Below are positions 2,297-56,356 of a DNA stretch of 64,000 nucleotides, in pieces (position 1 is the stretch's first letter; the number at the start of each line of letters is the position of its first letter). The stretch spans positions 607 through 64,606 of the forward strand of contig CAYJEI010000001.1 of assembly GCA_964369155.1 (NCBI GenBank), written 5' to 3'. Made by a program: the position numbers and the translations under genes. The notes below the pieces were generated by a model that had not been told where the DNA came from, made no database searches, and was given only the letters and a program-made list of their open reading frames with translations. Source of the stretch: an uncultured Muribaculaceae bacterium. GTDB taxonomy: Bacteria; Bacillota_I; Bacilli_A; RF39; UBA660.

Positions 2297-2312
2297 CTAG
2301 TTAAACATTTAA

Positions 2313-2341
2313 TTGAAAAAAGAAAATAACTATGTTAAAAT
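2313..2341 (+). promoter_or_regulatory. Sigma-A-like promoter of secreted-protein paralog 1 (TTGAAA-N17-TAAAAT), RBS AGAGAGG
   Basis: Hexamers with 17-nt spacer; about 60-bp leader identical to 5017-5078. Confidence 0.45.
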
Positions 2342-2365
2342 AAAATTAAGATAGAGAGGTTAATT

Positions 2366-3970
2366 ATGAAAGAAATATTAATAAAAAATAAAACAATAAT
2401 AATACTTTCACTTATACTTTTACTTCTAGGCGTTATAGGAGTGTCATATGCTTTTATGTCAAGTGATATTGTTGTAACAACAGAAGGCAACGCAAACACT
2501 CAGATTATTGCAGGAGATGGTTATACACTTGAGCATGTAAGAAACTCGGAAAAACTTACAGATGTAAGTGGAACTGATTACAGACTACTTGATATGTCAT
2601 CGGATATAACTCTTACAGCATTAGAACAAGTGGATACAACTTATGATTTATATTATAATGTTAAAGTTAATAATTATTTAGAAGGAACAACAACTTCTTC
2701 AGCTAAAGTAATCGTTAAAGTATTTAATCCAAGTGGAGCTGAAGTTACAACCATTACTGGACTTTCAAGAGTAACTGTAGGGTCAATTACTGGTTTTAAT
2801 TTAACAGATTATACTGGTAGTATAGAACTTGCTAAAGACTATGCTATATCAACAAACACTAGTACTACACAAAACTGGCAAGTAAAAGTATATTTATATG
2901 ATACAGCAGGTCTATCAAATATAAGTAATACATTATTTGATAGTGAACTTAATGTTGAGAAAAATATCGTGTTTGCAAAAGATTATATACTAGGACATAA
3001 TGGAGGTCAAACAGCAATAGAGGCAAAAGCGGAACCAGACTTTACACAAACTGCAACAACAGATGAAGGAATGTTTGCAGCGACAGATGAATACGGAACA
3101 AGTTACTATTATAGAGGTGCAGTAGATAATAACTGGATGCTATATAATGGAATATACTGGAGAATAGTAAGAATAGCCGGAAACGGGTCAATAAAACTAC
3201 TTTATAGTGGTACTACAGCGCCAGCGAGGGCAACAGCAACAGTAATGACTGGAAGTGGAACACAAGCTGGTACAAGTGCGTTTAATTCATCTTATAGTAA
3301 TAATGCATATGTTGGATATATGTATACACTTAATCAAAGACAAGGCCTTGGTACTAAGAGTACAATAGCAACTGTACTTGATAATTGGTATACAACAAAT
3401 ATGAATGGAGTAGACTTACAAATAGCAGATAATACATTTTGTTATGATAGAAGTTTAGCAACAGGAGGTTATCAAAGTAGTGATTTTGGATGGAATGGAA
3501 GTACATATACTGGAACAGGTATAGGAACTAGTGGTACATTATATGGTACTCATACAAGGTTAACAGCATCTAGTAGTACTTTGGAACTGGGAGGAACTGG
3601 ACCTGAACTCGCGTGTCCAAGTAGGGAGGATGCATATACAGTAGATGATACAACAAATGGAAATGGAGCACTTTCTAAAAAAGTAGGATTACTCACTGCC
3701 GATGAGGCAGTAATGGCTGGTCTAGGAGCTGGCTCTGCCAGCAGTACCAGTAGTAACTATTTGTATACAAATAGTAGCTACTGGTTAGGCTCTCCTTTTG
3801 GGTTCCGTTCTTATGATAATGCGGGTGTGTGGTATGTGTATTCTTCTGGTTCTTTGTACAACTTTAATGTCAATGATACTCGTGGTGTTCGTCCTGCAGT
3901 TTATCTCATGTCTAATATCGTGTTAAGCGGAACAGGTGAGTGGAACGACGTTTACAAAATAAAGTCTTAG
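2366..3970 (+). CDS. Secreted mosaic protein, paralog 1 (SipW-type signal peptide, TasA/camelysin-like N-domain, conserved C-terminal WLGSPFG/VRPAVYL module)
   Basis: N-terminal K-rich/hydrophobic signal ending GVSYAF; about 80% aa identity to 5076-6692; C-terminal blocks shared with 28363-30534 and 43933-46101; 3' end abuts IS remnant. Confidence 0.8.
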   Translation: MKEILIKNKTIIILSLILLLLGVIGVSYAFMSSDIVVTTEGNANTQIIAGDGYTLEHVRNSEKLTDVSGTDYRLLDMSSDITLTALEQVDTTYDLYYNVKVNNYLEGTTTSSAKVIVKVFNPSGAEVTTITGLSRVTVGSITGFNLTDYTGSIELAKDYAISTNTSTTQNWQVKVYLYDTAGLSNISNTLFDSELNVEKNIVFAKDYILGHNGGQTAIEAKAEPDFTQTATTDEGMFAATDEYGTSYYYRGAVDNNWMLYNGIYWRIVRIAGNGSIKLLYSGTTAPARATATVMTGSGTQAGTSAFNSSYSNNAYVGYMYTLNQRQGLGTKSTIATVLDNWYTTNMNGVDLQIADNTFCYDRSLATGGYQSSDFGWNGSTYTGTGIGTSGTLYGTHTRLTASSSTLELGGTGPELACPSREDAYTVDDTTNGNGALSKKVGLLTADEAVMAGLGAGSASSTSSNYLYTNSSYWLGSPFGFRSYDNAGVWYVYSSGSLYNFNVNDTRGVRPAVYLMSNIVLSGTGEWNDVYKIKS

Positions 3971-4856
3971 ATACGGACATTTTCTGATTTTTTCCTAAAA
4001 CACTGGGGAAAATGTTCCAAAATATTCGGCCGATAGATTAAAAATGTATAAAAAAATCACTTAAAATGTGATTTAAAACATACAAAAAAGGTTAAAATTT
4101 GAATTAAATTTTAAAAATTTTAAGTATATAAAATAAAATTTGTTTTAATGGTGACATTATTATTGCTGAGGTAAGCATTAAAAAGTGTTAAACCGAGATT
4201 GAAATTTGAGAGAATACGAATGTATTCTCCATTTTTTTTCTTTTTGGCAAATCTAACATTGAACTTTGTTTTTCTACGATGATAATTTTTGATGTAATCA
4301 GAACCAATAATTACAAGCCATATAGAAGCAATGCATAAAAGTGTATATAAAGTATCATATGCTTTAATATTTTTAGTTCTAGTTTTTTCAAGATTAAAAC
4401 CATTTGTTTTAGTGTTTTTGAAGAAAGATTCAATAAAACCAAATCTTTTGTTGTAATCTCTAACCGCAATATTTGGATCATTATTTGTGACAAGATACCA
4501 TGCTTCTTCATGTGTAACTGTTCTTGATATTACTAAGTTAGTTTTAATGGGATGATGCTTACCACAAGTTATATTTTTATAATATTTACTAACAAACACT
4601 TTAGGTGTGAAGTATTTTACTTTATACCATACTTCGTGTTTCTCGTTATAAGGTTTATATTTAAAATTAAGAGAACTATCTGCTTTTATTCTAAAACAAT
4701 AATAATGGTTAAGGGAATTAATACATTTAAGAATATTTAAATCAGAAAACCATCTATCTGCTAAAAAAGTTATTTTAATATCAGTATTGTTAACATAAGA
4801 AAAAGCTTCTTTAATTGCATTAAAAATAGTATTAGTCTTAAAAAGAGGTGATTGTT
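3967..4856 (-). mobile_element. Truncated, decayed copy of IS4-like insertion sequence (left inverted repeat present, 5' half of transposase gene deleted)
   Basis: Left end TTAGATACGGAC matches left inverted repeat (IRL) of the intact copy at 6738; internal sequence about 85% identical to 6738-6930; reverse-strand translation 4120-4856 aligns to C-terminal half of the 394-aa transposase with frameshifts/deletions. Confidence 0.75.
4120..4856 (-). pseudogene. Transposase pseudogene (C-terminal half, degraded upstream part)
   Basis: 159-aa ORF 4120-4599 aligns to residues about 235-394 of the transposase 6891-8075; upstream 4600-4856 still encodes HFTPKV-like remnant out of frame. Confidence 0.7.
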
Positions 4857-5022
4857 TTTATATAAAAGTTATAATTAATAAAATCTAATTTGGAAATAAA
4901 TTTCTATAGATGATTTTAATGTTAAAGTACTTTTAGAAGAAAATATTTTTTGTTTTAAAATTACAAAAATATAAATAAGATACTAAGAACTATATAAAAT
5001 GAAAAATTAATAAGTTATTTAA

Positions 5023-5051
5023 TTGAAAAAAGAAAATAACTATGTTAAAAT
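5023..5051 (+). promoter_or_regulatory. Duplicated promoter/leader of paralog 2
   Basis: Identical to 2313-2341 region. Confidence 0.45.
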
Positions 5052-5075
5052 AAAATTAAGATAGAGAGGTTAATT

Positions 5076-6692
5076 ATGAAAGAAATATTAATAAAAAATA
5101 AAACAATAATAATACTTTCACTTATACTTTTACTTCTAGGCGTTATAGGAGTGTCTTACGCTTTTATGTCAAGTGATGTTGTTGTAACAACAGAAGGTAA
5201 CGCAAATGTTCAGGTTATTGCTGGAGACGGTTATACATTTGAACATATAAGAAATATTGAGAAACTTACAGAAGTAAGTGGAACTGACTATACACTACTT
5301 GATATGTCTTCAGACATAACTCTTACAGCATTAGAACAAATTGATACAACATATGATTTATATTACAATATAAAGGTAAATAATTATTTAGAAGGAACTA
5401 CAACTTCCTCTGCTAAAGTAATTGTTAAAATCTATAATCCAAGTGGAGCTGAAGTAACATCTCTTACTGGACTTTCAAGGGTAACAGTAGGATCAATTAC
5501 TGGATTTAATTTAACAGATTACACTGGTAGTATAGAGCTTGTTAAAGATTACGCTATATCAACAAACTCTAGTATTACACAAAACTGGCAAGTAAAAGTA
5601 TATTTATATGATACAGTAGGTTTACCTAATATAAGTAATACTGTTTTTGATAGTGAAATGAATGTTGAGGAACATGATCCTTGTTGGAATCCTGAAACTT
5701 CTACAGATATAATATTATGTCATAATGGAGGACAAGCATTAATAGAAGCTAAAGCAGAACCAGATTTCACACAAGTAGCTGATACAAATGAAGGAATGTT
5801 TGCAACAACAGACACATATGGAACAGCATACTACTATAGAGGAGCAGTGGATAATAACTGGTTATACTATAATGGAATATACTGGAGAATAGTGAGTATA
5901 GCTGGAAACGGAGCTATTAAGCTACTTTATAGTGGTACTACAGCGCCAACAAGTGCAACGGCAACAGTAATGACTGGAGAACATACTGAAATAGGAGAAT
6001 ATGCATTTAATTCTACATATAATAATAATGCATATGTAGGGTATATGTATACTTTGAATCAAAGACAAGGACTAGGAACAAGTAGTCTTATAAAAACAAC
6101 ACTTGATAATTGGTACACAACAAATATGAATGGAGTTGACTCACAAATAGTAGATAATATATTTTGTTATGATAGAAGTTTAGCAAAATCTGGATATCAG
6201 AGTTCAAATTTTGGCTCAGCAAACGGAAGTTATACAGGAACTGGAACTGGAACTGTAGGTACATTATATGGAACAGCAGCAAGAATAACCGCATCAAGTA
6301 GTAGGATGGTAGCCGGTGGAACGGGACCAGACATAATGTGTCCTAGTAAAACAGATGCGTATACAGCAGGTGATACAACAAATGGTAATGGAGCTCTTTC
6401 TAAAAAAGTAGGGTTACTCACTGCCGATGAGGCAGTAATGGCAGGCCTTGCGCATGGCACAAGAAACAGTACCACCTATTTGTATACAAATAGGTGGTAC
6501 TGGTTGGGCTCTCCTTTTGGGTTCGGTTCTAATTCTACTGATTATGCTCGTGTGTGGGGTGTGGATCCTACTGGTAATTTCTACGACTTTTTTGTCAGTG
6601 CTACTTTTGGTGTGCGTCCTGCAGTTTATCTCACGTCTAATATCGTGTTAAGCGGAACAGGTGAGTGGAACGACGTTTACAAAATAAATTAG
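5076..6692 (+). CDS. Secreted mosaic protein, paralog 2
   Basis: Same architecture as paralog 1; signal peptide identical; 3' flank shared with paralog 3. Confidence 0.8.
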   Translation: MKEILIKNKTIIILSLILLLLGVIGVSYAFMSSDVVVTTEGNANVQVIAGDGYTFEHIRNIEKLTEVSGTDYTLLDMSSDITLTALEQIDTTYDLYYNIKVNNYLEGTTTSSAKVIVKIYNPSGAEVTSLTGLSRVTVGSITGFNLTDYTGSIELVKDYAISTNSSITQNWQVKVYLYDTVGLPNISNTVFDSEMNVEEHDPCWNPETSTDIILCHNGGQALIEAKAEPDFTQVADTNEGMFATTDTYGTAYYYRGAVDNNWLYYNGIYWRIVSIAGNGAIKLLYSGTTAPTSATATVMTGEHTEIGEYAFNSTYNNNAYVGYMYTLNQRQGLGTSSLIKTTLDNWYTTNMNGVDSQIVDNIFCYDRSLAKSGYQSSNFGSANGSYTGTGTGTVGTLYGTAARITASSSRMVAGGTGPDIMCPSKTDAYTAGDTTNGNGALSKKVGLLTADEAVMAGLAHGTRNSTTYLYTNRWYWLGSPFGFGSNSTDYARVWGVDPTGNFYDFFVSATFGVRPAVYLTSNIVLSGTGEWNDVYKIN

Positions 6693-6737
6693 GATTTTAG
6701 CAACACGAAAACCTCATTTCTGATAGGTCAAACGCGC

Positions 6738-8224
6738 TTAGATACGGACAATTTTCTAATTTTGTCCTAAAACACTGGTGAAAATGAGATAAAAAATACG
6801 ACCAGTAAATTAAAAAACGTTAAAAAATCACACAAAATGTGATTCAAAGCATACAAAAAAGGTCGAAAAGTGAATTGAATTTTAAAAATTTTAGATATAT
6901 AAAATAAAATTTGTTTTAATGGTGACATTATTGTTGCTGAGGTAAGCATTAAAAAGTGTTAAACAGAGATTGAAATTTGAGAGAATACGAGTGTATTCTC
7001 CATTTTTCTCTTTTTTGGCAAATCTAACATTGAATTTTGCTTTTCTATGATTATAATTTTTAATATAATTAGCACCTATTACAACTAACCAAATAGTAGC
7101 AATGCATAGAAGTGTATATAAAGTATCATAAGTTTCTATATTTTTAGTTCTGGTTTTTTCAAGATTAAATCCATTTGTTTTGATATTTTTAAAGAAAGAT
7201 TCTATTGCACCAAATCTTTTATTATAATCTCTAACTGCATCTCTTGGAGTATCATTTGTAAATAAATAATAACCTTCATCTTGACCTAAAGTTCTTGATA
7301 CAACTAGATTAGTTTTAAAAGGATTGCTTTTACTTGCAATTATATTTTCATAGTATTTGCTTGCATGAACTTTAGGAGTAAAATGTTTGATTTTATACCA
7401 AGTTTCATTATTTTCGAAATTAAATTGATATTTAAGGTTTAAGTCACTATTGGATTTCATTTTGAAGTTATAGTAGTGACCAAGTGATTCAATGTGTCTT
7501 AAAATATCAAGGTCACCGAACCATCTATCAGCTTGAAACTTAAGTTTTACATCCATTCCAGCAAAATATGAAACGACCTGATCAATAGCTACTAAAATTG
7601 TTTGTGTTATAAATATTGGTCTTTTTTTATCAAAGTCTTCTTTGGTTTTGCAAAAGTCTTTAGTTTTAGAGTTAATGAAAAATATTGGAATTCCTTGTTC
7701 ATTTACCCTAAGAGTAAAGACAAGTGCAACAAAATTATTTTTTTCCCAGGAGTGGTCTATGGTAATAAATGCTTTTTTATGTTTAAAAACAACAGAAGAT
7801 ATAATTTTTCTTATAAAAGTTTTAAATAAAAAATCACTATCTAAAGATGTATTGTTAAAAAAGCGATAAATTCTTTTTTGAACAGAATCTAAGTTAATTG
7901 AATTTACTTTATTTTTAGCAATATCTACAGTAACGATTGATTCTGCTTTAATTAAAGAAGGTACAATAGAGGATATATTTTTAAGATTAGGAATAGAAAT
8001 AGGAATATCAAGATGAGAAAAGAAATTGTAAATATCTCTTATTAAATCATTAATATTGTTATATAATTTTTTCATAAACAGCCACCTTTATATTATTTTT
8101 TTGTCAATTTAATTATAAAACAAAATGGCTGTTTATTTTATGTCTAAAATACGTTTAAGAAACGTTTAACAAATATAGTGTAAAACACTAGAAAGATCTA
8201 GTTTAAAAAAATGTCCGGATATAA
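6738..8224 (-). mobile_element. Intact IS4-like insertion sequence (about 1.49 kb) with imperfect 20-bp terminal inverted repeats
   Basis: IRL TTAGATACGGACAATTTTCT (6738) vs reverse complement of right end TTATATCCGGACATTTTTTT (8224), 16/20 match; single transposase ORF inside. Confidence 0.7.
6891..8075 (-). CDS. DDE transposase (IS4-family-like; ITIDHS, QADRWFG, YNKRFGAIESFFKNIK motifs)
   Basis: 394-aa ORF with D, D, E and Y-x2-R-x3/4-E-x6-K signature. Confidence 0.7.
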   Translation of the reverse strand: MKKLYNNINDLIRDIYNFFSHLDIPISIPNLKNISSIVPSLIKAESIVTVDIAKNKVNSINLDSVQKRIYRFFNNTSLDSDFLFKTFIRKIISSVVFKHKKAFITIDHSWEKNNFVALVFTLRVNEQGIPIFFINSKTKDFCKTKEDFDKKRPIFITQTILVAIDQVVSYFAGMDVKLKFQADRWFGDLDILRHIESLGHYYNFKMKSNSDLNLKYQFNFENNETWYKIKHFTPKVHASKYYENIIASKSNPFKTNLVVSRTLGQDEGYYLFTNDTPRDAVRDYNKRFGAIESFFKNIKTNGFNLEKTRTKNIETYDTLYTLLCIATIWLVVIGANYIKNYNHRKAKFNVRFAKKEKNGEYTRILSNFNLCLTLFNAYLSNNNVTIKTNFILYI

Positions 8225-8480
8225 GGGTATGTTGTTGAAGTGATGAGGAAACAAACAAAATCCATGGCCTATGTGTCTAAAAATGGGATAAGAGAAGAAA
8301 TAGAGTGTTAGTAGTTACAGTGCGAAAAGTAAGTTGTTTTTTTTCTCCCCTCTAGGAGATATTATGCAAAAATTTAGGCTACTTGAAAAAACAAGAAAAC
8401 AATTTTTTACGTTAATAAATATGTTGTTCCGAATATACCTAAAATTTATTCTGTTTATAGAAATGAGTTAATAAAATCGA
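8225..8480. repeat. About 250-bp noncoding repeat, copy A (about 88% identical to 31010-31265)
   Basis: Direct alignment; substitutions and non-triplet indels evenly spread, no conserved reading frame. Confidence 0.8.
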
Positions 8481-8847
8481 TGTTTATACTGCATAGAAGT
8501 ATTATAAGTGCAAATATTAACGAGGGAAATAGTAAAACTAGATTTCAAAAAGAGGCTTTAACTGAAATCTGTAATATAGATTTTATTATTTAATATTAAA
8601 TGAAATCAAAGTTATTGAAAGCAAAAGATATAACGCTATGATGAATGCTTTTTTAGAAATTAAAAAGATGCTAGAAACTTGGAGTAGTAATGAAAAGAAA
8701 AAATTATCTATTTAGTCATAATTTAAGAAGAGAAAGTATTTTTAACTGTTATTTAGATGTGAAAAGAAATTGTAAAAGTGATTTTAAACTTGCCAGTTTA
8801 GCGAAAATTTAAACTTAAATATTTTAAAAATATGTTTAAATTTACAT

Positions 8848-8878
8848 TATGATACTTATCAAATGGATAAGTATCATA
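8848..8878. promoter_or_regulatory. Perfect 13-bp inverted repeat (TATGATACTTATC-aaatg-GATAAGTATCATA) followed by T-rich tract
   Basis: Read directly; terminator-like or operator-like. Confidence 0.4.
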
Positions 8879-9040
8879 TATTTTTAATCAGAGAAAATAA
8901 AGTTATTATTAATTTATAATTAGTTTTATAAATATATTAGATACAAAAACATAACTAAATTTATTTTATTTAGTTAGTATATCTTAAGGTTATATTGTAA
9001 TATTTTAGCTTGTTTTGTCGAAGTGCTTGAAAGGAAAATT

Positions 9041-9952
9041 ATGATAGAAGAAAAAGAAATAAATCTTACTATGGATATTGTATTTAAAATGTTTTTTAAA
9101 ACTGAAGTTAAATATTTAGCGCTTGTTCTTAGTAATGTTTTAGATGAAGATATTAAAGAAAGTAATATAACTTTTCTAGATAAAGAAGAGGAAGGTGATA
9201 GTGCGCTTGATAAAGTTTGTGTACTTGATTTAAAAGTTAAACTTGATAGTGGTGAAATAATATTTATTGATATGCAAAGTTATAAAGAAAAATATTTATA
9301 TGAAAGAATGGAGTTTTATTTATCAAAGCTTACAGTTAAACAGTTAAAAAAATCTGAAAGTTATAGTAAACTTAAGAAAGTTTGTGGTATATTTTTTCTT
9401 AATTATCAAGATGAAAATTTTGATGAATTATTTACAGAAATAAAAGAATATGATACTATTAATGAAAGAGAAGTTAAAAGACTTAGAGAGAAATATATTA
9501 TTAATTTAACACATTTAGATAGAAATGAAATATTTAATAAAGATATGATGAATTTACTTAAGTTTATGACTTTAAAAAAAGAAAAGGATAGGAAAGATAT
9601 GGCAATTACTGATGAAAAATTAAAAGAAGCTTATGAAGCAATGGCTAAAATTAATTCTGATCCACTAGTTGAAGAATATATTTGGGCAAAAGAAAATGAA
9701 GAAAGAAGAAGGTTGCAAAGTATAAGTGATGCTAAGGAATTTGCAATGGAAGAAGGTTATGCAAATGGACGTATAGCTGGCCATGCTGAGGGTCATGCTG
9801 AAGGCCATGCTGAAGGTCATGCTCGAGGAATTGCTCAAGAGAAGTCTAACGTTGTTAAAGAAATGTATAAAAATAGGCTTGATATAGATTTGATAAGTAA
9901 TGTAACAAAATTATCGGAAAATGAAATTAAAAAGATATTAGATATAGAATAA
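9041..9952 (+). CDS. Rpn-family (YhgA-like, PD-(D/E)XK) recombination-promoting nuclease / putative transposase
   Basis: Typical Rpn layout with C-terminal (GHAE)x4 repeat and LSENEIKKIL tail; RBS AAAGGAAAA before ATG 9041. Confidence 0.65.
   Translation: MIEEKEINLTMDIVFKMFFKTEVKYLALVLSNVLDEDIKESNITFLDKEEEGDSALDKVCVLDLKVKLDSGEIIFIDMQSYKEKYLYERMEFYLSKLTVKQLKKSESYSKLKKVCGIFFLNYQDENFDELFTEIKEYDTINEREVKRLREKYIINLTHLDRNEIFNKDMMNLLKFMTLKKEKDRKDMAITDEKLKEAYEAMAKINSDPLVEEYIWAKENEERRRLQSISDAKEFAMEEGYANGRIAGHAEGHAEGHAEGHARGIAQEKSNVVKEMYKNRLDIDLISNVTKLSENEIKKILDIE
9779..9826 (+). repeat. Four tandem 12-nt repeats (GGYCATGCTGAR) encoding GHAEGHAEGHAEGHA
   Basis: Read directly inside the Rpn-family gene. 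Confidence 0.9.
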
Positions 9953-10043
9953 AATATATTTAATATCTTTTTTATTAATAAAATATGAAAATACTTTTAA
10001 TATTTCTTATTATAAGATATAATTATTTAAGAAAGTTGGTTAT

Positions 10044-12164
10044 ATGAATTTAAATTTAATAAAAGAAGTAAGTTTAGAACTTAGTTTAAATGAAAAAGAT
10101 TGTGAAGCTGTTTTAAAACTTTTAGAAGAAGGTAATACAGTACCTTTTATAGCGAGATATAGAAAAGAAGCAACACATGGAATGGACGAAGAGCAAATTA
10201 GATTAATATCACTTAGATATGAATATATTGTTAATTTAGAAAAGAAAAAAGATGATGTAAAAAGATTGATTGATGAAAAGGGTCTTCTTACTGATGATTT
10301 AGTAAATAATATTAATAAAGCTACTAAGCTTGTTGAACTTGATGATATTTATCGTCCGTTTAAAGAAAAGAAAAAAACAAAAGCTACTGATGCGATTAAT
10401 AATGGTTTAGAACCTCTCGCAAAAGGTATTATGGCTTTTCCAACTAGTGGTTCTTTAGAAGAGATGGCTAGTAAATATGTAAATGAAAATGTTAAAAGTG
10501 TTGATGATGCGATTACTGGAGCTAAATATATTATTGCTGAGTGGATTAGTGATAATGCTTTTTATAGAAAGTATATTAGAGATAATATTTTTAAATTTGG
10601 AAGTGTAGTTACTAAGAAGAAAAAAGATGCAGTAGATGAGTCTAAAACATATGAAATGTATTATGAATTTAGTGAGAAAATTAGTTATGCTAAAGCACAC
10701 AGAGTACTTGCATTTAATAGAGCTGAAAATGAAAAAATAATATCAGTTTCACTTGATTATGATAAAACTAGAATACTTGATTTTTTAGAGAAAAAAATTA
10801 TTAAGAATAGTGATAGTTTTACTGCTTTAGAAGTTAAAGACGCTATAGCTGATTCTTTTAAAAGACTTATTTATCCTTCTGTTGAAAGAGAAATAAGAAG
10901 TGAGCTTACTAGTATGGCAGAGGTGCAAGCTATTGAAAATTTTAGTGAAAATCTTAAAAATTTACTAATGCAGCCACCAATGAAAGAAAAAGTTATTTTA
11001 GCACTTGATCCAGCTTATAGAACAGGTTGTAAACTTGCTGTTCTTGATAAAAATGGTAAAGTTTTAGATATATCAGTAATATATCCACATGAACCTAAAA
11101 ATGACAAAGCAGGAAGTGCTAAAAAGGTTTTAGAACTTATAAATAAGTATGATGTTGATATTGTTGCAATAGGTAATGGAACTGCATCACGTGAGTCAGA
11201 AGAATTTATTGCCAAGCTTATTAATGATGGTAATTTAAAATCTCAGTATATTATTGTTAATGAAGCAGGAGCATCTGTATATTCAGCTAGTAAACTAGCT
11301 ATAAGCGAGTTTCCAGATTACTCTGTAGAGCAAAGAAGTGCAGTATCAATTGGTAGAAGACTTCAAGACCCACTTTCAGAACTTGTTAAAATTGATCCAG
11401 AATCAATAGGTGTTGGCTTATATCAACATGATGTTGCGAATAAATCATTAAAAGAGTCACTAGATTTTGTTGTATTATCATCAGTTAATAGTGTAGGAGT
11501 AGACGTAAATACAGCAAGTATAGCTTTATTTAAATACGTTTCAGGTATCACTAGTAAGATGGCTGAAAAATTAATTGCTTATAGAGAAAAATCTAAAAAA
11601 ATTTCATCAAGAATAGAGCTTAAAAAAATACTAAGTGATAAGGTATACCAGCAGGCTATTGGTTTTATGAGGATAAATGACGGAGATAATTTACTTGATG
11701 AGACTGCAATACATCCAGAAAGTTATGATATTGCTACTTTAATTTTAAAAGATAACAATCTAAGTATAAGTGATATAGGAACTGAAAAAGTATTGAAAAT
11801 CAATTTTGTAAATAAATATGATATAGATAACTATACATTTGATGATATAGTAGATTCATTTAAAAAACCAAAAAGAGATCCAAGAGATGAGTTTGATAAA
11901 CCAATTTTAAAATCTAGTATCTTAAAATTAGAAGATTTAAAACTTGGAGATGAATTACAGGGTACTGTAAGAAATGTTATAGATTTTGGAGCTTTTGTAG
12001 ATATTGGACTTAAAAATGATGGACTTGTTCATATATCTAAAATAACTAAAGAGTATATAAAACATCCATCAGAAGTTTTATCTATTGGTCAAATTATTAC
12101 TTGCCATGTTGAAAAAATTGATTTAAAAAAGAAAAAAGTATCACTTACAATGTTAGGAGAATAA
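10044..12164 (+). CDS. tex: Transcription accessory protein Tex (YqgF/HhH/S1 domains)
   Basis: 706 aa; N-terminal FIARYRKE motif, C-terminal S1 domain. Confidence 0.9.
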   Translation: MNLNLIKEVSLELSLNEKDCEAVLKLLEEGNTVPFIARYRKEATHGMDEEQIRLISLRYEYIVNLEKKKDDVKRLIDEKGLLTDDLVNNINKATKLVELDDIYRPFKEKKKTKATDAINNGLEPLAKGIMAFPTSGSLEEMASKYVNENVKSVDDAITGAKYIIAEWISDNAFYRKYIRDNIFKFGSVVTKKKKDAVDESKTYEMYYEFSEKISYAKAHRVLAFNRAENEKIISVSLDYDKTRILDFLEKKIIKNSDSFTALEVKDAIADSFKRLIYPSVEREIRSELTSMAEVQAIENFSENLKNLLMQPPMKEKVILALDPAYRTGCKLAVLDKNGKVLDISVIYPHEPKNDKAGSAKKVLELINKYDVDIVAIGNGTASRESEEFIAKLINDGNLKSQYIIVNEAGASVYSASKLAISEFPDYSVEQRSAVSIGRRLQDPLSELVKIDPESIGVGLYQHDVANKSLKESLDFVVLSSVNSVGVDVNTASIALFKYVSGITSKMAEKLIAYREKSKKISSRIELKKILSDKVYQQAIGFMRINDGDNLLDETAIHPESYDIATLILKDNNLSISDIGTEKVLKINFVNKYDIDNYTFDDIVDSFKKPKRDPRDEFDKPILKSSILKLEDLKLGDELQGTVRNVIDFGAFVDIGLKNDGLVHISKITKEYIKHPSEVLSIGQIITCHVEKIDLKKKKVSLTMLGE

Positions 12165-28362: not shown

Positions 28363-30534
28363 ATGGAGCAAATAAAAAAAGTTAAAAAAAGAGTAATAGT
28401 TATGATAGTAAGTGTACTTGTACTGACTATAAGCGTAGGATACGCATTTATAGCAGGAGGAGTAGGACCAGCTGCTAATACAGATGTGGATATAGCAAGT
28501 GGGTCTACAACTAAACTTACATTTACAGAAGGAACACCTATAGGTTTAGAGTTAAATCAAACAACGCTTGCTGAAGGTGGTAGTGATGTAAGAGGAACTA
28601 CTACATCAAGTGCAACACTTACACTTGGTACTAATGTGACAAGCGCAACAGAGTATTATCAAGTTTATTTAAATATAGAAGCAAATAATTTTATTTATAC
28701 AACATCAGCAAAAACACCAGAGATATTACTTTCAGTAACTGATCCTGAAGGAAATGCTAAAAGTATAGAAGGTCTTCCAGAAGTATCTGCTGGAGTATAT
28801 GACATAACAGATTATAAAGGTCTTATAAAAATAGTAGAAGATTACGAAATTACAGGAAGCACTACAACAGTGCATGACTGGGAAGCAACAATAACATTTG
28901 TAAATTTAGACTCAAATCAAGCAGCTAATAGTGAAAAATCATTAGATGCAACTCTTATATTACAACAACCGAAAATGATGATACCAGATATAGGAATAGT
29001 AACTCCGGAAGGATGCACAGACTGTGGTCCAGGTGAAACAGTAGTAACTCCATCTACAGGAGATGTAGGGGAAAATGGTTCTACATATGATATATATACA
29101 GTAGGCTATGTAACTAATACATCAGCAACTGGAGTAACATACTCTATAGATATAAAAATACCAGGAATGGATTACTCTAAGCAAACTTTAGAACTAGTAA
29201 ATACAGCAGAAGTAATGGAACTTTTATTTGATTATGAAGAGTATATAGATTTTAAAGGTTCAGGAGTAATATCTAGTGGAAATACTGATGCAAGTGCAGT
29301 AGCAACAGCAAACGATCTTCATACATCATCAATGAAAGAAAGTAACTTAACTATAAATAGTGTAAAAGTAACATGTGGATCAGATAAATGTACAGCAGTA
29401 ATAACTGAAACATTTAGTAACTTATCAGGGTTAACAGCACACTCTACAACAACAAATAGTGGAGCAGCAATTAATGCAATATATAATGGAATAATGTTTA
29501 ATGTAATGTTAAGTGAAAAAACTGACCCATGTATAAATCCAACATCATCAAAAGATTTAATACTATGTCACAATGGAGGGCAAGCAGTAATAGAGGCAAA
29601 AGCAGAGCCTGATTTTACACAAGTAGCTGATACAAATGAAGGAATGTTTGCAGCAGAAGATGAATATGGAACAAGTTACTATTATAGAGGTGCTGTAGAC
29701 AATAACTGGGTGTTATTTAATGGAATATACTGGAGAATAGTAAGTATAGCAGGAGATGGCTCATTAAAACTACTTTATAGTGGCACTACAGCGCCGACAA
29801 GTTCAACAGCAACTGTTATGACTGGAAGTGGAACAGAGATAGGTACTAGCGCGTTTAATACAAGTATTAATGATAATGCGTATGTAGGATACATGTATAC
29901 TTTAAATCAAAGACAAGGATTAGGAACATCAAGTACAATAAAAGGAACTTTAGAAACCTGGTATACAACTAATATGAATGGAGTTGACTCACAAATAGCA
30001 GATAATATATTTTGTTATGATAGGAGTTTAGCTACAGCTGGATTTCAAAATTATAATTATGGCTCAACAAATGGAATTTATACAGGAACTGGAATAGGAA
30101 CAAGTGGTACATTATACGGAGTGACTGCAAGAATAACAGCATCAAGTAGTTCTTTTGGCCCAGGGGGAACAGGACCAGACTTAATGTGTCCTAGCAAAGA
30201 AGATGCGTATACAGTAGATGATACAACAAACGGAAATGGAGCTCTTTCTAAAAAAGTAGGGTTACTCACTGCCGATGAGGCAGTAATGGCAGGCCTTGCG
30301 TCTGGCATAAACATCTTTAGTAACTATTTGTACACAAATAGTAGGTACTGGTTGGGATCTCCTTTTGGGTTCTATTCTAGTTCTCATGCTCGTGTGTGGT
30401 ATGTGTATTCTTCTGGTCGTTTGAGCAACGATTATGTCAATTATGTTTGTGGTGTCCGCCCTACAGTTTATCTTTCATCTAATATCGTGTTAAGCGGAAC
30501 AGGTGAGTGGAACGACGTTTACAAAATAAATTAG
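28363..30534 (+). CDS. Secreted mosaic protein, paralog 3 (long form, extra about 190-aa insert)
   Basis: Signal ending ISVGYAF; N-domain type B shared with paralog 4; C-terminal module and 3' flank shared with paralog 2. Confidence 0.8.
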   Translation: MEQIKKVKKRVIVMIVSVLVLTISVGYAFIAGGVGPAANTDVDIASGSTTKLTFTEGTPIGLELNQTTLAEGGSDVRGTTTSSATLTLGTNVTSATEYYQVYLNIEANNFIYTTSAKTPEILLSVTDPEGNAKSIEGLPEVSAGVYDITDYKGLIKIVEDYEITGSTTTVHDWEATITFVNLDSNQAANSEKSLDATLILQQPKMMIPDIGIVTPEGCTDCGPGETVVTPSTGDVGENGSTYDIYTVGYVTNTSATGVTYSIDIKIPGMDYSKQTLELVNTAEVMELLFDYEEYIDFKGSGVISSGNTDASAVATANDLHTSSMKESNLTINSVKVTCGSDKCTAVITETFSNLSGLTAHSTTTNSGAAINAIYNGIMFNVMLSEKTDPCINPTSSKDLILCHNGGQAVIEAKAEPDFTQVADTNEGMFAAEDEYGTSYYYRGAVDNNWVLFNGIYWRIVSIAGDGSLKLLYSGTTAPTSSTATVMTGSGTEIGTSAFNTSINDNAYVGYMYTLNQRQGLGTSSTIKGTLETWYTTNMNGVDSQIADNIFCYDRSLATAGFQNYNYGSTNGIYTGTGIGTSGTLYGVTARITASSSSFGPGGTGPDLMCPSKEDAYTVDDTTNGNGALSKKVGLLTADEAVMAGLASGINIFSNYLYTNSRYWLGSPFGFYSSSHARVWYVYSSGRLSNDYVNYVCGVRPTVYLSSNIVLSGTGEWNDVYKIN

Positions 30535-30558: not shown

Positions 30559-30584
30559 TTTCTGATAGGTCAAACGAGGGAGTC
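30559..30584 (+). terminator. Terminator-like hairpin GGTCAAACGA-gggag-TCGTTTGACC downstream of paralog 3
   Basis: 10-bp stem; 5' arm also present after paralog 2 where the IS follows. Confidence 0.5.
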
Positions 30585-30766
30585 GTTTGACCGTAATTTA
30601 GTTGTGGGGAATATCAAAAAATAGAGAAAGTCTGATTTATATCCGCCGAAAGGCGGAAAATATTTGACACAAAATATACATATTGGATATTTTGTGTCTT
30701 TTTGTAATTACGCATTATTTGCTTATCGTAAATTTGGTATAATATAATTGTATACAAGTTATACTG

Positions 30767-30912
30767 GGTTTTGTTACTTAGGGATCTCCTTTGGGTTCAA
30801 TTTTAATAATATTAATATATGGAAAGTGAATTCTTTTGGTAATTTGAAGAACAATAATGTCACTAATACTAATGGAATGCGTCTTGCAGAGCTTCCTTTC
30901 ATAATTTTAAAA
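30767..30912 (+). pseudogene. Frameshifted AT-rich fragment homologous to the C-terminal about 45 codons of the secreted-protein family
   Basis: Translates (with one frameshift) to LYW / YLGISFGFNFNNINIWKVNSFGNLKNNNVTNTNGMRLAELPFIILK*, which aligns to YWLGSPFGF...VWYVYSSGRL..GVRPTVYLSSNIVL; preceded by TTGCTT...TGgTATAAT promoter-like sequence. Confidence 0.55.
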
Positions 30913-31009: not shown

Positions 31010-31265
31010 AATAAAGTGATGAGAAAACAAACAAAATTCATGGTCTATGTGCCTAGAATTAGGATAAGAGAAGAAATAGTGTATTAGTAGTACAGTGTGA
31101 AAAGTAAGTTGTTTTTATTCTCCACTACAGGAGATATTATGCAAAAATTTAGGTTACTCGAAAAAACTAGGAAAACAATTTCTAGTTAATAAATATGTTG
31201 CTTTGAATATATCTAAAATTTATTCAGTATATAGAAACGAATTAATTAAATCGATGTTTATTTTG
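31010..31265. repeat. About 250-bp noncoding repeat, copy B
   Basis: About 88% identical to 8225-8480. Confidence 0.8.
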
Positions 31266-31399: not shown

Positions 31400-31570
31400 A
31401 TTCTAGTGCGGAGGATATAGAAAGTAATTAGCGCAGGGATTAAGGTATCTTAATTGACGAGGTGTATAGTTATCGATTTATCAGCGGATGCTATACCGGC
31501 CAAAAGTGGTCGTTAAATATATGACAAAAAATAAAATTTAAGATTATAACAAAGCATATATTAAGAAAGG
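31400..31570 (+). ncRNA. glmS ribozyme: glmS ribozyme (GlcN6P-responsive self-cleaving riboswitch)
   Basis: A|GCGCAGGG cleavage-site core (A31430/G31431), P1 AUUAAG..CUUAAU, GACGAGG, P2 GUGUAUAG-UUAUCGAUUUAUCAGCGGAUGC-UAUAC matching the B. subtilis glmS leader; immediately 5' of glmS. Confidence 0.85.
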
Positions 31571-31583
31571 AAATAATTTTTAT

Positions 31584-33481: not shown

Positions 33482-35590
33482 ATGGATGAAGATATATTTA
33501 AAGAATTAGATGAAGATAAAAATGATATAAAAGAAGTTATAGAACTAGAAAGCGAAGAAATTGCTGTTGAAGATGATGTAGTAATGGAAAAAAATAGAAA
33601 AGGTAGAAAAGGTAAAAAAGAAAAAAAACCATCATGGTTTAGTAAATTGCCTAAAAAGAAAAAGATAATAATTATAAGTATAATTGTAGTTGTTTTGCTA
33701 ATTATTATTGGTTTACTATTATATTTCTTTGTTTTTAGTAAAAGTGAAACAAAAGATAAAATAGAAGAAGTAAATATAGTAGTTGAAAAAAATAACTATA
33801 GATATGAAAATGGTGTTTTAGTATTTTTAGATTCAAATGATAAAGAAATTGGGAAATATGAATGTACAAATAAAGATCAAAATTTATGTTTAATAGCGTC
33901 TTATAGTATTGAAGAAAATCTATACACTTCTAAATATATAAATGAAGAAGGTGAAGAAATTAATTTTGATACACCTGTATTTTCTAATAGATATGTAATT
34001 GTTTATGATAATGAAAATTTGGATAACGAAAACCTTACATTATATGATCTAGAATTAAACAAGTCTTTAGGTGTTTACCAAAGTGTTAAAAGATATGATG
34101 ATAAAAATATTTATTTAGTAGATGAAAATGGCAAATATGGATTAATTAATTTAGAAGGTGAAGAGCCGCTAACAAAAATAGCTTTTGAATATAATTATCT
34201 AGGAAATAATATCGGTAGTTCCAAAATAGCATATAAACTAGATGACAAAAGTGGTTTACTTAATATAGATGGTACAAAATTTAAAGAAAATTTAAGTGGA
34301 ACAATATATAGTTATGATGATAATGGACTTGTAGTTCTAGAAACAAATGGGTCATATAAAATTTCAGGATTAACTAATACAGATGTATTAAAAGACAGTT
34401 ATAGTTTTATGTATATTGAAGAAGGATATATTTATTATGTAGATAATAATATGTTATATGTGAGACTAGATAATGGATCTAAACTTTACGAAGAAGGAAT
34501 AGAAATTTTAGAAGGTACAGTATTTGACAATGTAATTACTTACGATGAAAGTTATAAATTAATTAAAAGTGAGTATTTTATTGAAGCTATTGTTGAAACT
34601 GGAAGTTTAGAATTTACAATGAATGATGAAGAATATAGTTATAATAAATATGAAGCTTTAATAAATAATAATTATAATTACGTAAATTATTTTGATAAGA
34701 AACTTTACATTTATAGTGATGCTGCTAAAGAAGAAGATTATAAAATATACACATGCGAAAATGAAAATACCGTTGATGAATCTGATGCAAGCTTTGATAA
34801 TTGCTTTATTGCAACAGAATCAAAACTTCTTAACAGAACAAATGCAAAAGATACATTAGGGTTTATACCAATATACGGAAACAAATATATATTCATTAAT
34901 GATATGAAACCTAAATCTACAAGCGCCAACATAAAATTATGGGATTTAGATAAACCTGATGCAGAATATCCAATTGCAACTTATAAAAGTGTAGATATTG
35001 GTTACTACAATGACAGTAATGATATAATATCTGCAGATGCATCTAATTTAATAATAATGGCTCAAAATTTAAATAAATATTATGGTTTAATTAAACTAAA
35101 TAATACGAGTGTTGAATCTTTATTCGGAACAGAATTTATTTACTCAACAATCCAGCTTGCTAATGATGTATATTATACTAAAGATAAAGATGGGAATTAT
35201 AGAATATTTAACAAAAGTGGTACAGAGATAACTAACTCAGAAATTGAAATTAAAAATGAAATAGTTGATTATAATGGAAATTATTTGAAGGTTAAATCGG
35301 GTACTGGAAAATATTTAGTTTATAAAAATGATGGAACAATTGTAAGTAATGAACTTGCTAATATTAAACTTGGAACAGATAAATATCTAGGAGTTACAAG
35401 CGATGATAAAATAGAAGTATATAATTACAGTAATGGAAAAACAAATATACTTAGCGTAACAGTGCCGCTTTTAAGTTCAGATATTACATTTGTAGACAAT
35501 ACAACAGCTGGTTTTGAAATAATTTTTAAAGACAGTGAGCAAAAAGTAATAGGAACATATTCATTTAAACATAATGGTGAAGAAGTATGA
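33482..35590 (+). CDS. Membrane-anchored WG/KYG-repeat protein with Cys pairs
   Basis: Acidic then K-rich N-term, one TM, repeated NGKYGLINLEG..IAFEYNYLG motifs. Confidence 0.6.
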   Translation: MDEDIFKELDEDKNDIKEVIELESEEIAVEDDVVMEKNRKGRKGKKEKKPSWFSKLPKKKKIIIISIIVVVLLIIIGLLLYFFVFSKSETKDKIEEVNIVVEKNNYRYENGVLVFLDSNDKEIGKYECTNKDQNLCLIASYSIEENLYTSKYINEEGEEINFDTPVFSNRYVIVYDNENLDNENLTLYDLELNKSLGVYQSVKRYDDKNIYLVDENGKYGLINLEGEEPLTKIAFEYNYLGNNIGSSKIAYKLDDKSGLLNIDGTKFKENLSGTIYSYDDNGLVVLETNGSYKISGLTNTDVLKDSYSFMYIEEGYIYYVDNNMLYVRLDNGSKLYEEGIEILEGTVFDNVITYDESYKLIKSEYFIEAIVETGSLEFTMNDEEYSYNKYEALINNNYNYVNYFDKKLYIYSDAAKEEDYKIYTCENENTVDESDASFDNCFIATESKLLNRTNAKDTLGFIPIYGNKYIFINDMKPKSTSANIKLWDLDKPDAEYPIATYKSVDIGYYNDSNDIISADASNLIIMAQNLNKYYGLIKLNNTSVESLFGTEFIYSTIQLANDVYYTKDKDGNYRIFNKSGTEITNSEIEIKNEIVDYNGNYLKVKSGTGKYLVYKNDGTIVSNELANIKLGTDKYLGVTSDDKIEVYNYSNGKTNILSVTVPLLSSDITFVDNTTAGFEIIFKDSEQKVIGTYSFKHNGEEV

Positions 35591-36480
35591 TAAAAAAAGA
35601 TGATAAAGTAGTTTTATATATAATTGTAATTTTACTTATTATCTTTTTGCCTTTAAGTGCATATGGAACATATTTAAAATTTTTTACTAGTGACATGATA
35701 GAAAATCCAAATGAAAATTTCAAACATGAAGGAAGTTTATACTTTTACGAAAATGATGACTTACTAGGAACATATAAATGTATTAATACTTCATGCGATT
35801 ATGCAAAAAGTGTAGAAGATGAAATTTTTATGACTTATGAATATGAAAACGTGATGGAAAATATAGATATTTTAAATAGCAAATATGCCCTTATAGAAGA
35901 TAGTACTTATGTATTACAAGACATGGTAAATGATATACCGTTAACTACATTTGAAAGTGTAAAATTTTATAACTCGAATATTGAAGGAAATAATATATTT
36001 GTTAAAAATAATGGTAAATATGGCATGCTATCACTAGAAAGCATAAAGTTAATAATTCCATATGAATATGATTATTTAGGTGTAAAAAATTATTATAATA
36101 ATGGATTACTGCAAATATCAAATATTTTAGCAAAAAAAGATAATGGTTTTTTCATATTGAATGACAAAAATGAAGTGATAAGTAGTATATTTAATGAAAA
36201 TGTAATAGATTATAATAGTAACTATATAGTAACAACAAATAATATTGTATATGACTATGAAGGTAATAAAAATTTTGAATTAGTATTAATAAAACAAGTT
36301 TTTTTACTTAATGATTACATAATTATAATGGATGATAATGATAATATATTTGTATACGATAATAATTTCAATGAATTAAAATCATTTAATAGTAGCGGAG
36401 GTAGTTTAAGTGCTATAGAGCATTTAGAAACTATTGAAATTTTCATTGATAATATATCAATAGATAATGTTGAAAAATAA
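35587..36480 (+). CDS. Membrane-anchored WG/KYG-repeat protein (paralog of upstream gene)
   Basis: YKCINTSCDY and NGKYGMLSLE..IIPYEYDYLG similar to upstream ORF; start overlaps stop. Confidence 0.6.
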   Translation: MIKKDDKVVLYIIVILLIIFLPLSAYGTYLKFFTSDMIENPNENFKHEGSLYFYENDDLLGTYKCINTSCDYAKSVEDEIFMTYEYENVMENIDILNSKYALIEDSTYVLQDMVNDIPLTTFESVKFYNSNIEGNNIFVKNNGKYGMLSLESIKLIIPYEYDYLGVKNYYNNGLLQISNILAKKDNGFFILNDKNEVISSIFNENVIDYNSNYIVTTNNIVYDYEGNKNFELVLIKQVFLLNDYIIIMDDNDNIFVYDNNFNELKSFNSSGGSLSAIEHLETIEIFIDNISIDNVEK

Positions 36481-36513: not shown

Positions 36514-36519
36514 ATAGTC

Positions 36520-36712
36520 AGCAAGCAAAGAAGTTTGAGGAGTAAAATATTATTTATTTTTAGAGAGTTAGTGTGAGGTGAAAACTAACAATAAATATAT
36601 TTGAAGGTTGCAAACGGAGTTTGAACGGTTAGAACCGATATATTCTAGATAAGTTAAAATTAAGGTGGTACCGCGTATAATACGCCCTTTGGTATTACCT
36701 TTTTATTTTGGG
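36520..36712 (+). promoter_or_regulatory. T-box riboswitch leader of valS
   Basis: AGAGA box, conserved T-box AATTAAGGTGGTACCGCG (36657-36675), overlapping terminator GGTGGTACC...GGTATTACC + T-run. Confidence 0.8.
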
Positions 36713-46852: not shown

Positions 46853-48166
46853 ATGGCAAAAGAAAAAATTAAAATGGGTAAAAAAGAAAAGATATTTAAT
46901 GTTATAAGTTTTTTAATTATAGGAGTACTTGCTATTTACTATGGTGGACGTGCAGTATACTGGTTTATATATGAACTTAGTGAAGCTCAAAATAGAGATA
47001 ATACTGCTGCACATTATGTAATAAATGATAATGAAATAGTAGATGAAGGTGACGGATTATACAGAGCTAAAGATACTTATTATTTTGCTGGAAATCCTGA
47101 AAATAATTACGTGACATTAGGTGGTGCGACGTATCGCATACTTAGCATAAATGAAAACAACGAAATGAAATTAGTTCTTAATGATGTTGCAGCAAGTTTT
47201 ATGTGGGGAGAAGAAAATAGTTATTCATCTTCAAATGTAGATGTTTGGCTAGGAGATAGTGGTGTATACTATGATACATTAATAGAAGCAGAAAAATATT
47301 TATCAAAAACTAAATTTACTGAAGATGTTTTAAGTGATGGAAGTTTAGAAGTTGGAGACAAATTATTTGAAGAGTATGTTACAACACTTACGGTATCTGA
47401 TTATGAAACTGCAGGTGGAAGCGATAGCTTTTTAAATAATGAAAAATATTTCTGGTTAATTGGGAAATCAAATGAAAATAATTTATATGTAAACTCCAGT
47501 GGAGTAATAAGTGAATACACAACTAGCGAATCATATGGCGTTAAACCAGTTATAACTTTAAAAGGTGATGTTATAAGATTAAGAGGAGAAGGAACTTTAA
47601 GTAATCCTATATATATTGATACAAAAGATGATATGACATATATAAATTCTTATGTAACGTTAGGTACTGATACATACAAAGTTTTTGAAGAAAATGAAGA
47701 TATACTTAAACTTGTTAAAACAGATAGTATAGCTGGTGTTCTAAAACCATATGGAACACTTAATACTAATTTTGATTTAAGTGATGCAACTAGTTTAGCG
47801 TATTATTTAAATAATGATTACTTAAATAGTTTAAGTTATGCAACTAGTTTATCAGATTGTACGTTTAATACTGGTGTGATAAGTGAAGAAAAAGGATTTA
47901 ACTATTCAAATATTTTAGAAGAAACTATAGTGGCTAAAGTTGGAATTATGAATATTTTTGATTATAATAATAACGATATAGAAAATTATTTTTACTTAAC
48001 AAATACAGGTCTAGGAAGTGATACAGCTTATGTGAAAAGTGAAAATGGATTATTAAAAAAAGATTTAATAACTTCTGAAAAAGAAATAGTTCCAGTTATT
48101 TGTTTAAATAAAGATAAAATAATAGATGGTGTAGGAGCTAGTTATAGCCCATATACAGTAGAATAG
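46853..48166 (+). CDS. Membrane-anchored protein with two tandem copies of the family C-terminal module (YYFAGNPENNYV...YRIL; YFWLIGKS...GVKPVITL; YFYLTN...IVPVICL)
   Basis: N-terminal TM anchor; motif-level similarity to the paralog C-terminal domain. Confidence 0.65.
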   Translation: MAKEKIKMGKKEKIFNVISFLIIGVLAIYYGGRAVYWFIYELSEAQNRDNTAAHYVINDNEIVDEGDGLYRAKDTYYFAGNPENNYVTLGGATYRILSINENNEMKLVLNDVAASFMWGEENSYSSSNVDVWLGDSGVYYDTLIEAEKYLSKTKFTEDVLSDGSLEVGDKLFEEYVTTLTVSDYETAGGSDSFLNNEKYFWLIGKSNENNLYVNSSGVISEYTTSESYGVKPVITLKGDVIRLRGEGTLSNPIYIDTKDDMTYINSYVTLGTDTYKVFEENEDILKLVKTDSIAGVLKPYGTLNTNFDLSDATSLAYYLNNDYLNSLSYATSLSDCTFNTGVISEEKGFNYSNILEETIVAKVGIMNIFDYNNNDIENYFYLTNTGLGSDTAYVKSENGLLKKDLITSEKEIVPVICLNKDKIIDGVGASYSPYTVE

Positions 48167-56279: not shown

Positions 56280-56356
56280 GTTCTTGTAACTCAGCTGGAT
56301 AGAGTAAATGCCTCCGACGCATTAAGTCTAGGGTTCGAGTCCCTACAAGAACGCCA
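56280..56356 (+). tRNA. tRNA-Arg (anticodon CCG)
   Basis: Manual fold: acceptor GTTCTTG/CAAGAAC, D-stem ACTC/GAGT, anticodon stem AATGC/GCATT with loop CTCCGAC, T-stem TAGGG/CCCTA with loop TTCGAGT, 3' CCA. Confidence 0.85.

Follow-up and report, generated by a model that had tools for sequence, protein, structure and literature searches.

Four paralogous genes and a distant fifth in a 64,000-nucleotide stretch of contig CAYJEI010000001.1 (assembly GCA_964369155.1; the whole stretch is called the window below) probably encode exported lectin-like proteins whose binding face was written by a diversity-generating retroelement (DGR) that has since decayed locally. We put the probability of this reading at about 80%. 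The system is of a known protein-diversifying kind, here in an uncultured gut bacterium, and represents no new class of mechanism. The window is chromosomal, has a GC content of 27% and carries housekeeping and sporulation-type genes.

The four open reading frames, designated c1 (2366–3970, 534 aa), c2 (5076–6692, 538 aa), c3 (28363–30534, 723 aa) and c4 (43933–46101, 722 aa), lie on the plus strand exactly where an earlier note on this DNA had placed them, and sequence alignment bore out the modular design and the two types of N-terminal domain (N-domain) described there. Open reading frame, Pfam and alignment data divide c1 into a signal/anchor, a type-A beta-sandwich and a C-terminal module (C-module) of the kind known as a C-type lectin-like domain, or CTLD; c2 follows the same design. 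In c3 and c4, which share 89% identity at the DNA level, a type-B N-domain is followed by an insert of ~185 aa and the CTLD. The alignment gave an identity of 80% for c1/c2 and 84% for c3/c4. The N-domains (~150 aa) are only ~25–30% identical between the c1/c2 and c3/c4 types but can still be aligned. All four proteins start K-rich, continue with a hydrophobic stretch of ~20 residues and share an invariant Y-A-F, and the signal/anchor of each copy terminates in [STG][YF]A|F. AlphaFold2 models contain a transmembrane (TM)-like helix at residues 2–31, a low-confidence linker and the beta-sandwich; in c3 the N-domain (residues 50–200) was predicted with pLDDT above 90, and the insert (residues 206–387) badly, with pLDDT below 50. 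The insert is confined to c3 and c4, had no match in Pfam and, with only 4 Cys, does not deserve the label Cys-rich that it had been given. The C-module (~335 aa) contains long invariant blocks in the c1–c4 alignment. Most of the motifs quoted for the family earlier were found letter for letter, with a few departures: c3 reads SVGYAF in place of G[VI][ST]YAF, in c1 the two Cys of CxNP..ILCHNGGQ are missing and MCPSK is replaced by ACPSR, and c4 has YYFRG and GVRPVVYL. The fifth paralog (46853–48166, plus strand, 437 aa), two genes downstream of c4, combines a TM segment with a divergent CTLD. It was recognized by the C-module hidden Markov model (HMM; E = 1.3e-15) and by tblastn (31–33% identity over 52–58 aa) and carries the motifs YRILSI, FWLIGKS and YGVKPVITL; a Pfam search with it gave no match.

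Near the C-terminus the four copies contain a variable region (VR), defined here as a stretch of 26 aligned codons bounded by SPFG[FY] and GVRP. Its equivalents, all on the plus strand, are 3806–3883 in c1 (assigned from NNT/NNC codons in the codon alignment), 6531–6608 in c2, 30373–30450 in c3 and 45937–46017 in c4. Within the VR, 19, 14 and 2 columns vary at the first, second and third codon positions, respectively, against 57, 58 and 127 in the other 247 codons of the C-module (Fisher 3e-8). Adenine accounts for 3 of the 43 invariant VR bases but for 36% elsewhere. This pattern is the signature of a DGR, in which AAT/AAC template codons are rewritten to NNT/NNC. Among the four copies, c4 is closest to the template (NNNYVNNT). 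In c2 the VR covers residues 486–511, which were modelled with high confidence as a hairpin with loops (strands 490–496 and 502–506). The VR flanks of c1, c2 and c3 are near-identical, with TACTGGTTRGGNTCTCCTTTTGGGTTC on the 5' side and 31–77 nt at 95–100% identity on the 3' side. Each VR is closed by GGTGTYCGYCCT, which is GC-rich against the 27% GC of the genome; in c3 the end is the GC-rich GGTGTCCGCCCT (encoding GVRP), resembling an initiation of mutagenic homing (IMH) site. The IMH is the sequence at the 3' end of a VR where mutagenic homing starts.

Because DUF6273, the Pfam family matched by the C-module, is a published DGR target with a C-terminal VR in gut phages (PMC10743442; bioRxiv 10.1101/2024.10.15.618418), we searched for template repeats (TRs). 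A TR relic of 153 nt was found at 30748–30900 on the plus strand. The c3 stop codon precedes it by 213 nt, with a stem-loop at 30568–30592 and a TGGTATAAT box (30735–30743) in between, and it carries Asn codons (AAT/AAC) at the hypervariable columns (FGFNFNNINIWKVNSFGNLKNNNVTNTNGMR). Compared with the four VRs, 18–25 of its 43 adenines are mismatched, whereas the other bases are mismatched at 16–20% (Fisher 6e-6 to 2e-3). Within the 66-nt core that aligns without gaps, the differences affect 9–16 of 23 adenines and 5–7 of 43 other bases. The mismatches are clearly biased toward adenines but lack the clean pattern of a live TR/VR pair, and 30748–30900 is therefore probably a drifted template repeat. 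The stem-loop, on the same strand 34 nt after the c3 stop codon, has the form GGTCAAACG-AGGGAGT-CGTTTGACC with no T-run after it. By analogy it may be the inverted repeat that follows a DGR target, and similar stem-loops follow the target stop codons in the related loci L044 and L078.

Remnants of the protein-coding part of a DGR are also present in the window. A frameshifted avd pseudogene on the plus strand at 8387–8703 was detected by tblastn, matching the avd-like protein of L078 at 43% over 68 aa and, in a second frame, at 40% over 40 aa (E = 3.5e-13), and the bAvd of L044 with E = 9e-6. Directly after it, at 8690–8901 on the same strand, lies the N-terminal stump of a reverse transcriptase (RT) of ~70 codons in two frames, which by tblastn matches residues 1–38 and 32–71 of the L044 DGR RT collinearly (E = 0.005 each). 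The stump is cut off by a PD-(D/E)XK_2 transposase-like gene (9023–9952; Pfam E = 1e-18), which may mark the event that truncated the RT; the stump is the only RT match in the window. The region upstream of avd, including the 5' end of avd itself, exists in a second copy at 31014–31261 on the plus strand, 87% identical to 8238–8487. This copy follows the TR relic and contains a short open reading frame with ...MQKFRLLEKTRK, as at 8334–8471, and an avd 5' fragment near 31097–31189. Together, the c2 and c3 loci reconstruct an ancestral target–hairpin–TR–avd–RT cassette, which underwent duplication followed by decay.

Intact cassettes were found in related genomes. In L044, a target gene of the family (5515–7176, VR 6987–7112) is followed by a bAvd-like gene (PF22296, E = 7e-8), a TR (7986–8111) and an RT (RVT_1, E = 4e-14), and 24 of the 26 TR/VR mismatches fall on TR adenines (p = 3.7e-13). 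L078 has an intact cassette beside a family member in the order target–TR–avd–RT, with an intact RVT_1 RT; its gene order is that of the c3 locus, and its avd-then-RT order is also that of 8387–8901. TR-like matches in L053 and L064 turned out to be paralog fragments in which the adenine bias is absent.

The same differences among the copies might be ascribed to ordinary paralog divergence with positive selection on a binding loop and no retroelement, the Asn-rich stretch being a decayed gene fragment. The binding loops of paralogous adhesins do often evolve fast, and the TR relic does carry non-adenine mismatches. Positive selection would nevertheless leave third codon positions free to change, yet only 2 of 26 columns vary there, and it would not purge adenines from invariant sites. 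The relic, moreover, is restricted to the VR, places its Asn codons exactly on the hypervariable columns and has avd and RT remnants next to it, arranged as in the intact L078 cassette. We therefore consider this explanation very improbable.

According to the mechanism that we propose, the proteins would be exported and either membrane-anchored or released, with an N-terminal signal/anchor, a beta-sandwich spacer and a large CTLD head; the C-terminal hairpin and loops of the head, that is, the VR, would form the ligand-binding face. A transcript of the TR would be reverse-transcribed, with bases misincorporated at random opposite adenines, and the cDNA would overwrite the VR, converting the AAT/AAC codons of the template into NNT/NNC codons in the gene. 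The proteins would lie at the cell surface and act in ligand binding or as adhesins. Decay of the element would have left the drifted TR beside c3, the frameshifted avd, the RT of ~70 codons and an insertion sequence (IS) in place of the c2 TR. Unless they are still served in trans by an intact DGR at another place in the genome, the four distinct VRs would then make up a frozen set of binding specificities. Since the local DGR appears dead, the four VRs are probably now fixed.

A DGR that is still live is possible although rather unlikely: its RT, avd and TR would be intact at a different genomic site and would diversify the four targets in trans, and the local remnants would be redundant copies. 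Such a DGR would fit the VRs of c1–c3, which differ at template-adenine positions between near-identical flanks, and the local TR relic, which fits none of the VRs well at non-adenine positions. Remote multi-target DGRs are also documented, and trans diversification of scattered targets has been proposed for Treponema denticola (PMC5758913). On the other hand, no RT was found in the window outside the stump, or in the 6-kb flanks of the copies in the closest relatives (L005–L007), and a metagenome scan for the VR flank returned nothing.

Several observations weigh against a DGR-written binding face that has decayed locally. Relative to all four VRs the TR relic shows 12–16% non-adenine differences and a one-codon indel; hence either another template was used last or the relic has drifted afterwards. 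An intact RT or avd is absent from the 64 kb. The single basis for the putative IMH assignment is the GC-rich GGTGTYCGYCCT. The metagenome scan, made with the VR 5' flank, had no matches that could show present-day VR variation. Finally, the structural relative discussed below, the N-terminal domain of an IgA protease, itself has no known function and is dispensable for IgA cleavage (PMC12237041).

The lectin-like identity of the C-module rests on both profile and fold. At the Pfam DUF6273 cut-off of 23.5 bits, c1 (27.4), c3 (25.0) and c4 (25.2) pass and c2 (16.6) falls below. The match spans the last ~80 aa, covering only positions ~80–171 of the profile, and was seen in 8 of 41 aligned relatives. 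The predicted fold of the C-module is of the CTLD type. A Foldseek search of the PDB with the full model gave only beta-sandwich noise of low TM-score, and a profile search of PDB sequences gave nothing relevant; the N-terminal domain of the IgA protease of Thomasclavelia ramosa (IgAse/ThomasA, PDB 9qa6) was detectable by fold alone. The earlier view of the C-terminal module as widespread and uncharacterized holds; the family comprises 10,632 clusters at 50% identity (E ≤ 1e-3). Species-representative genomes gave at least 589 matches, in many cases 6–8 to a genome, mostly from uncultured gut Bacilli that carry the deposited names "Mycoplasma sp. CAG", "Tenericutes UMGS" or Candidatus Caccenecus; 2.9 million viral contigs gave 5. 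Members are overwhelmingly found in cells and in several copies. In the closest relatives (L005–L016 and others, from assemblies CAYJ* and CAYO*), gene content and family distribution point to low-GC Bacilli, and the deposited label "uncultured Muribaculaceae" of these metagenome-assembled genomes is probably wrong. Two giant metagenomic proteins, P0123 (3528 aa) and P0124 (4905 aa), contain 8 and 15 matched module stretches, respectively.

The presence of DUF6273 among the DGR targets of gut phages (PMC10743442), together with the 5 viral contigs that carry relatives, raises the question of whether c1–c4 are receptor-binding proteins of a prophage, like tentaclin or the Mtd-like DUF6273 targets. 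We rejected a phage identity, which is scarcely plausible given the genomic context and the ratio of at least 589 genomic to 5 viral matches. Housekeeping genes (among them P-type ATPase, mutL, glmS, recO, era and tdk) surround c1–c4, phage genes are absent from the vicinity, and the proteins bear an N-terminal signal/anchor.

The earlier note had instead proposed a SipW-type signal, a TasA/camelysin-like N-domain and a candidate biofilm matrix. In this alternative the proteins would be matrix proteins served by a dedicated SipW-type signal peptidase, possibly polymerizing by donor-strand exchange. The end of the signal does resemble the TasA site (T-W-A|A-F). The motif [STG][FY]A[FY][FYMI] stands at the end of the hydrophobic segment with the small-x-Ala geometry of a cleavage site, and [STG][YF]A|[FY][FMI], with a near-invariant Ala, occurs in 71 of the 120 best homologues. 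Aromatics around the cut disfavour LepB-type cleavage, and the TasA cleavage site is a poor LepB substrate for this reason (PMC10269814). The segment after the motif is conserved in sequence and of low confidence in the models. In addition, the Peptidase_M73 gathering score (22.5 bits) is exceeded, at ~24 bits, by L058, L071 and L080, which are distant members of the family whose match takes in only the signal and ~55 mature residues, corresponding to the first third of the profile from its N-terminus; in the L081 array, two members come just short (20.3 and 22.4 bits). The signal class may therefore be related to that of TasA, and in some lineages a TasA-like signal and first strands are fused to the lectin-like module. 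The L081 array (5473–12107) consists of four family members in tandem, with N-termini reading GTYAYF...TGT[ML]xLxF.

The profile searches do not carry the likeness further. With the full proteins as queries, Pfam and NCBIfam gave no match to TasA, camelysin or TIGR04088. TIGR04088, with a cut-off of 19 bits, scored best at 13.8 bits (c2, first 60 residues) and at 8.6 bits in one relative, with no hit to the other N-termini tested; the c2 score, which could be counted in favour of a SipW-type signal, is no better than spurious matches to FliL, SecF and generic TM profiles. M73/TasA models (PF12389 and NF046066) had no match at E ≤ 1 in c1–c4 and none in the 41 relatives; M73, TasA and TIGR04088 stay below threshold in all window copies and all these aligned relatives. 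The predicted N-domain fold is a generic beta-sandwich and not a TasA-like jelly-roll. An N-region HMM scored CalY at 6.4 bits (signal only) and TasA at ~0, and hhalign/hmmsearch comparisons of the N-region with M73-like relatives and with TasA and CalY were marginal, reaching the signal or the last strands only. As the earlier note had stated, the window lacks sipW: a box-B regular expression and phmmer/tblastn with Sec11, SipW and SipS queries revealed no type I signal peptidase-like gene. Searches for an S26 peptidase across the window and 874 kb of related loci likewise came back empty, and candidate signal-peptidase matches in L054, L035 and L066 were actually SpoIVB and LexA. Many family members also have a plain TM anchor. 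TasA-type matrix proteins are thus an unlikely identity for c1–c4, and the emphasis on biofilm gives way to a feature absent from that account, namely that the C-module is the variable lectin-like domain of a DGR. Its description of the genes as exported, evidently diversifying paralogs was sound.

The label mosaic was likewise apt, because the nearest paralog shifts repeatedly along the C-module when it is read in 30-codon windows. At codons ~246–275, c1 pairs with c3 and c2 with c4 at 90–92%; c3 and c4 pair at 91–96% over codons 276–365, c2 and c4 at 92% over codons 396–425, and c1 and c2 at 90% at the 3' end. This switching indicates gene conversion between the paralogs. The gene plus an IS unit, moreover, form a 2.5-kb tandem duplication (2307–4762 and 5017–7533, 78–80% identity). 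The 59 bp 5' of the c1 and c2 ATGs are 100% identical, and a promoter-like site, TTGAAA-17-TGnTAAAAT, stands upstream of c1 (2313–2341, plus strand) with an identical copy upstream of c2 (5023–5051). An IS element on the minus strand at approximately 6735–8237, its ends set by where homology breaks, encodes a DDE_Tnp_1 transposase (6891–8075; Pfam E = 3.5e-6); it interrupts the c2 stem-loop and occupies the stretch that holds the TR at the c3 locus. A partial second copy, also on the minus strand (3966–4762), abuts the c1 stop codon within the duplication. IS-linked tandem duplication combined with gene conversion would account for the mosaicism of the paralogs.

At the 5' edge of the VRs we noticed near-perfect palindromes of ~36–42 bp inside the coding sequence (S-S-N-Y-L-Y-T-N-S-S-Y-W). 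The c1 palindrome spans 40 bp (3746–3785), with equivalents at 6467–6502 in c2, 30323–30342 in c3 and 45878–45915 in c4. These are the strongest palindromes of the window and exceed what the peptide dictates (P < 1/3000 against a null of synonymous-codon resampling). The arms pair over 18 contiguous positions in c2 and at 18 of 20 in c1, and the c1 and c2 arms differ by paired changes that alter the protein. The TR relic starts at the palindrome centre (TTGTA|TACAA). Relatives in other genomes keep only a palindrome core of 10–20 nt. We think it doubtful that the palindrome has a function in cis in this lineage of DGRs; as a hairpin it could fix the stop of cDNA synthesis or integration, or promote cassette exchange between paralogs. 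Quasi-palindrome template switching, a 5' boundary of homing and an antisense terminator are possible alternatives. To our knowledge, an upstream palindrome element has not been described for DGRs; the inverted repeat known from them is found downstream of the IMH.

Other features of the window include a glmS ribozyme (31419–31572) upstream of glmS, a T-box leader (36519–36692) upstream of valS and one tRNA gene (56280–56353). At 33482–36480, two adjacent genes encode TM-anchored Asn/Tyr-rich proteins of 702 and 297 aa with similar repetitive sequence, unrelated to the c1–c4 family.

Taken as a retroelement-written family, these genes draw attention to a very large unannotated group of proteins, encoded many times per genome by uncultured gut Bacilli of low GC content, that appears to provide a lectin-like surface module which DGRs can hypermutate and that is linked by fold to the N-terminal domain of a gut IgA protease. 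They give rise to a specific hypothesis on the way in which uncultured commensals change their binding targets and, if the VRs are fixed, provide a set of naturally frozen binding variants. The window also illustrates how such an element would decay, through IS insertion, pseudogenization of avd, truncation of the RT and drift of the template.

Among known systems, TasA/camelysin shares with c1–c4 the small-aromatic-Ala | aromatic end of the signal and a weak early-mature pattern, N..(A/S)G...L.F. Unlike tasA, the window genes have no sipW or tapA neighbours, and their products add a large lectin-like head. The N-terminal domain of IgAse/ThomasA is a structural relative of the family and holds a structural Zn site formed by D78, H90 and C126 (PMC12237041, PMC12402451). 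In contrast to c1–c4, it is fused to an M64 metallopeptidase that is sortase-anchored, and it is not known to be diversified by a DGR. The phage tentaclins and Mtd-like DUF6273 proteins belong to the same Pfam family and share the C-lec-like fold and a C-terminal VR (PMC10743442; bioRxiv 10.1101/2024.10.15.618418), and some gut phages have lost the DGR while keeping their DUF6273 targets. The phage targets are structural proteins, whereas the window genes are chromosomal and carry export signals. A further comparison is with DGR variable proteins of the C-type lectin (CLec) fold, namely Mtd of Bordetella phage BPP-1, T. denticola TvpA and Legionella LdtA (PMC5758913). The CTLD of the window proteins is about twice the usual size, their N-terminus consists of a beta-sandwich behind a TasA-like or TM segment with no lipobox, and their cassette is degenerate, with an RT stump, an avd pseudogene and a drifted TR. 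As in Mtd, TvpA and LdtA, a CLec-fold domain has the VR at its C-terminal end, variation is adenine-templated and of the NNY type, the VR ends GC-rich with an inverted repeat downstream (a candidate one in the window), and the cassette comprises avd, TR and RT, in the window as remnants; T. denticola, like the bacterium described here, also has scattered paralogous targets.

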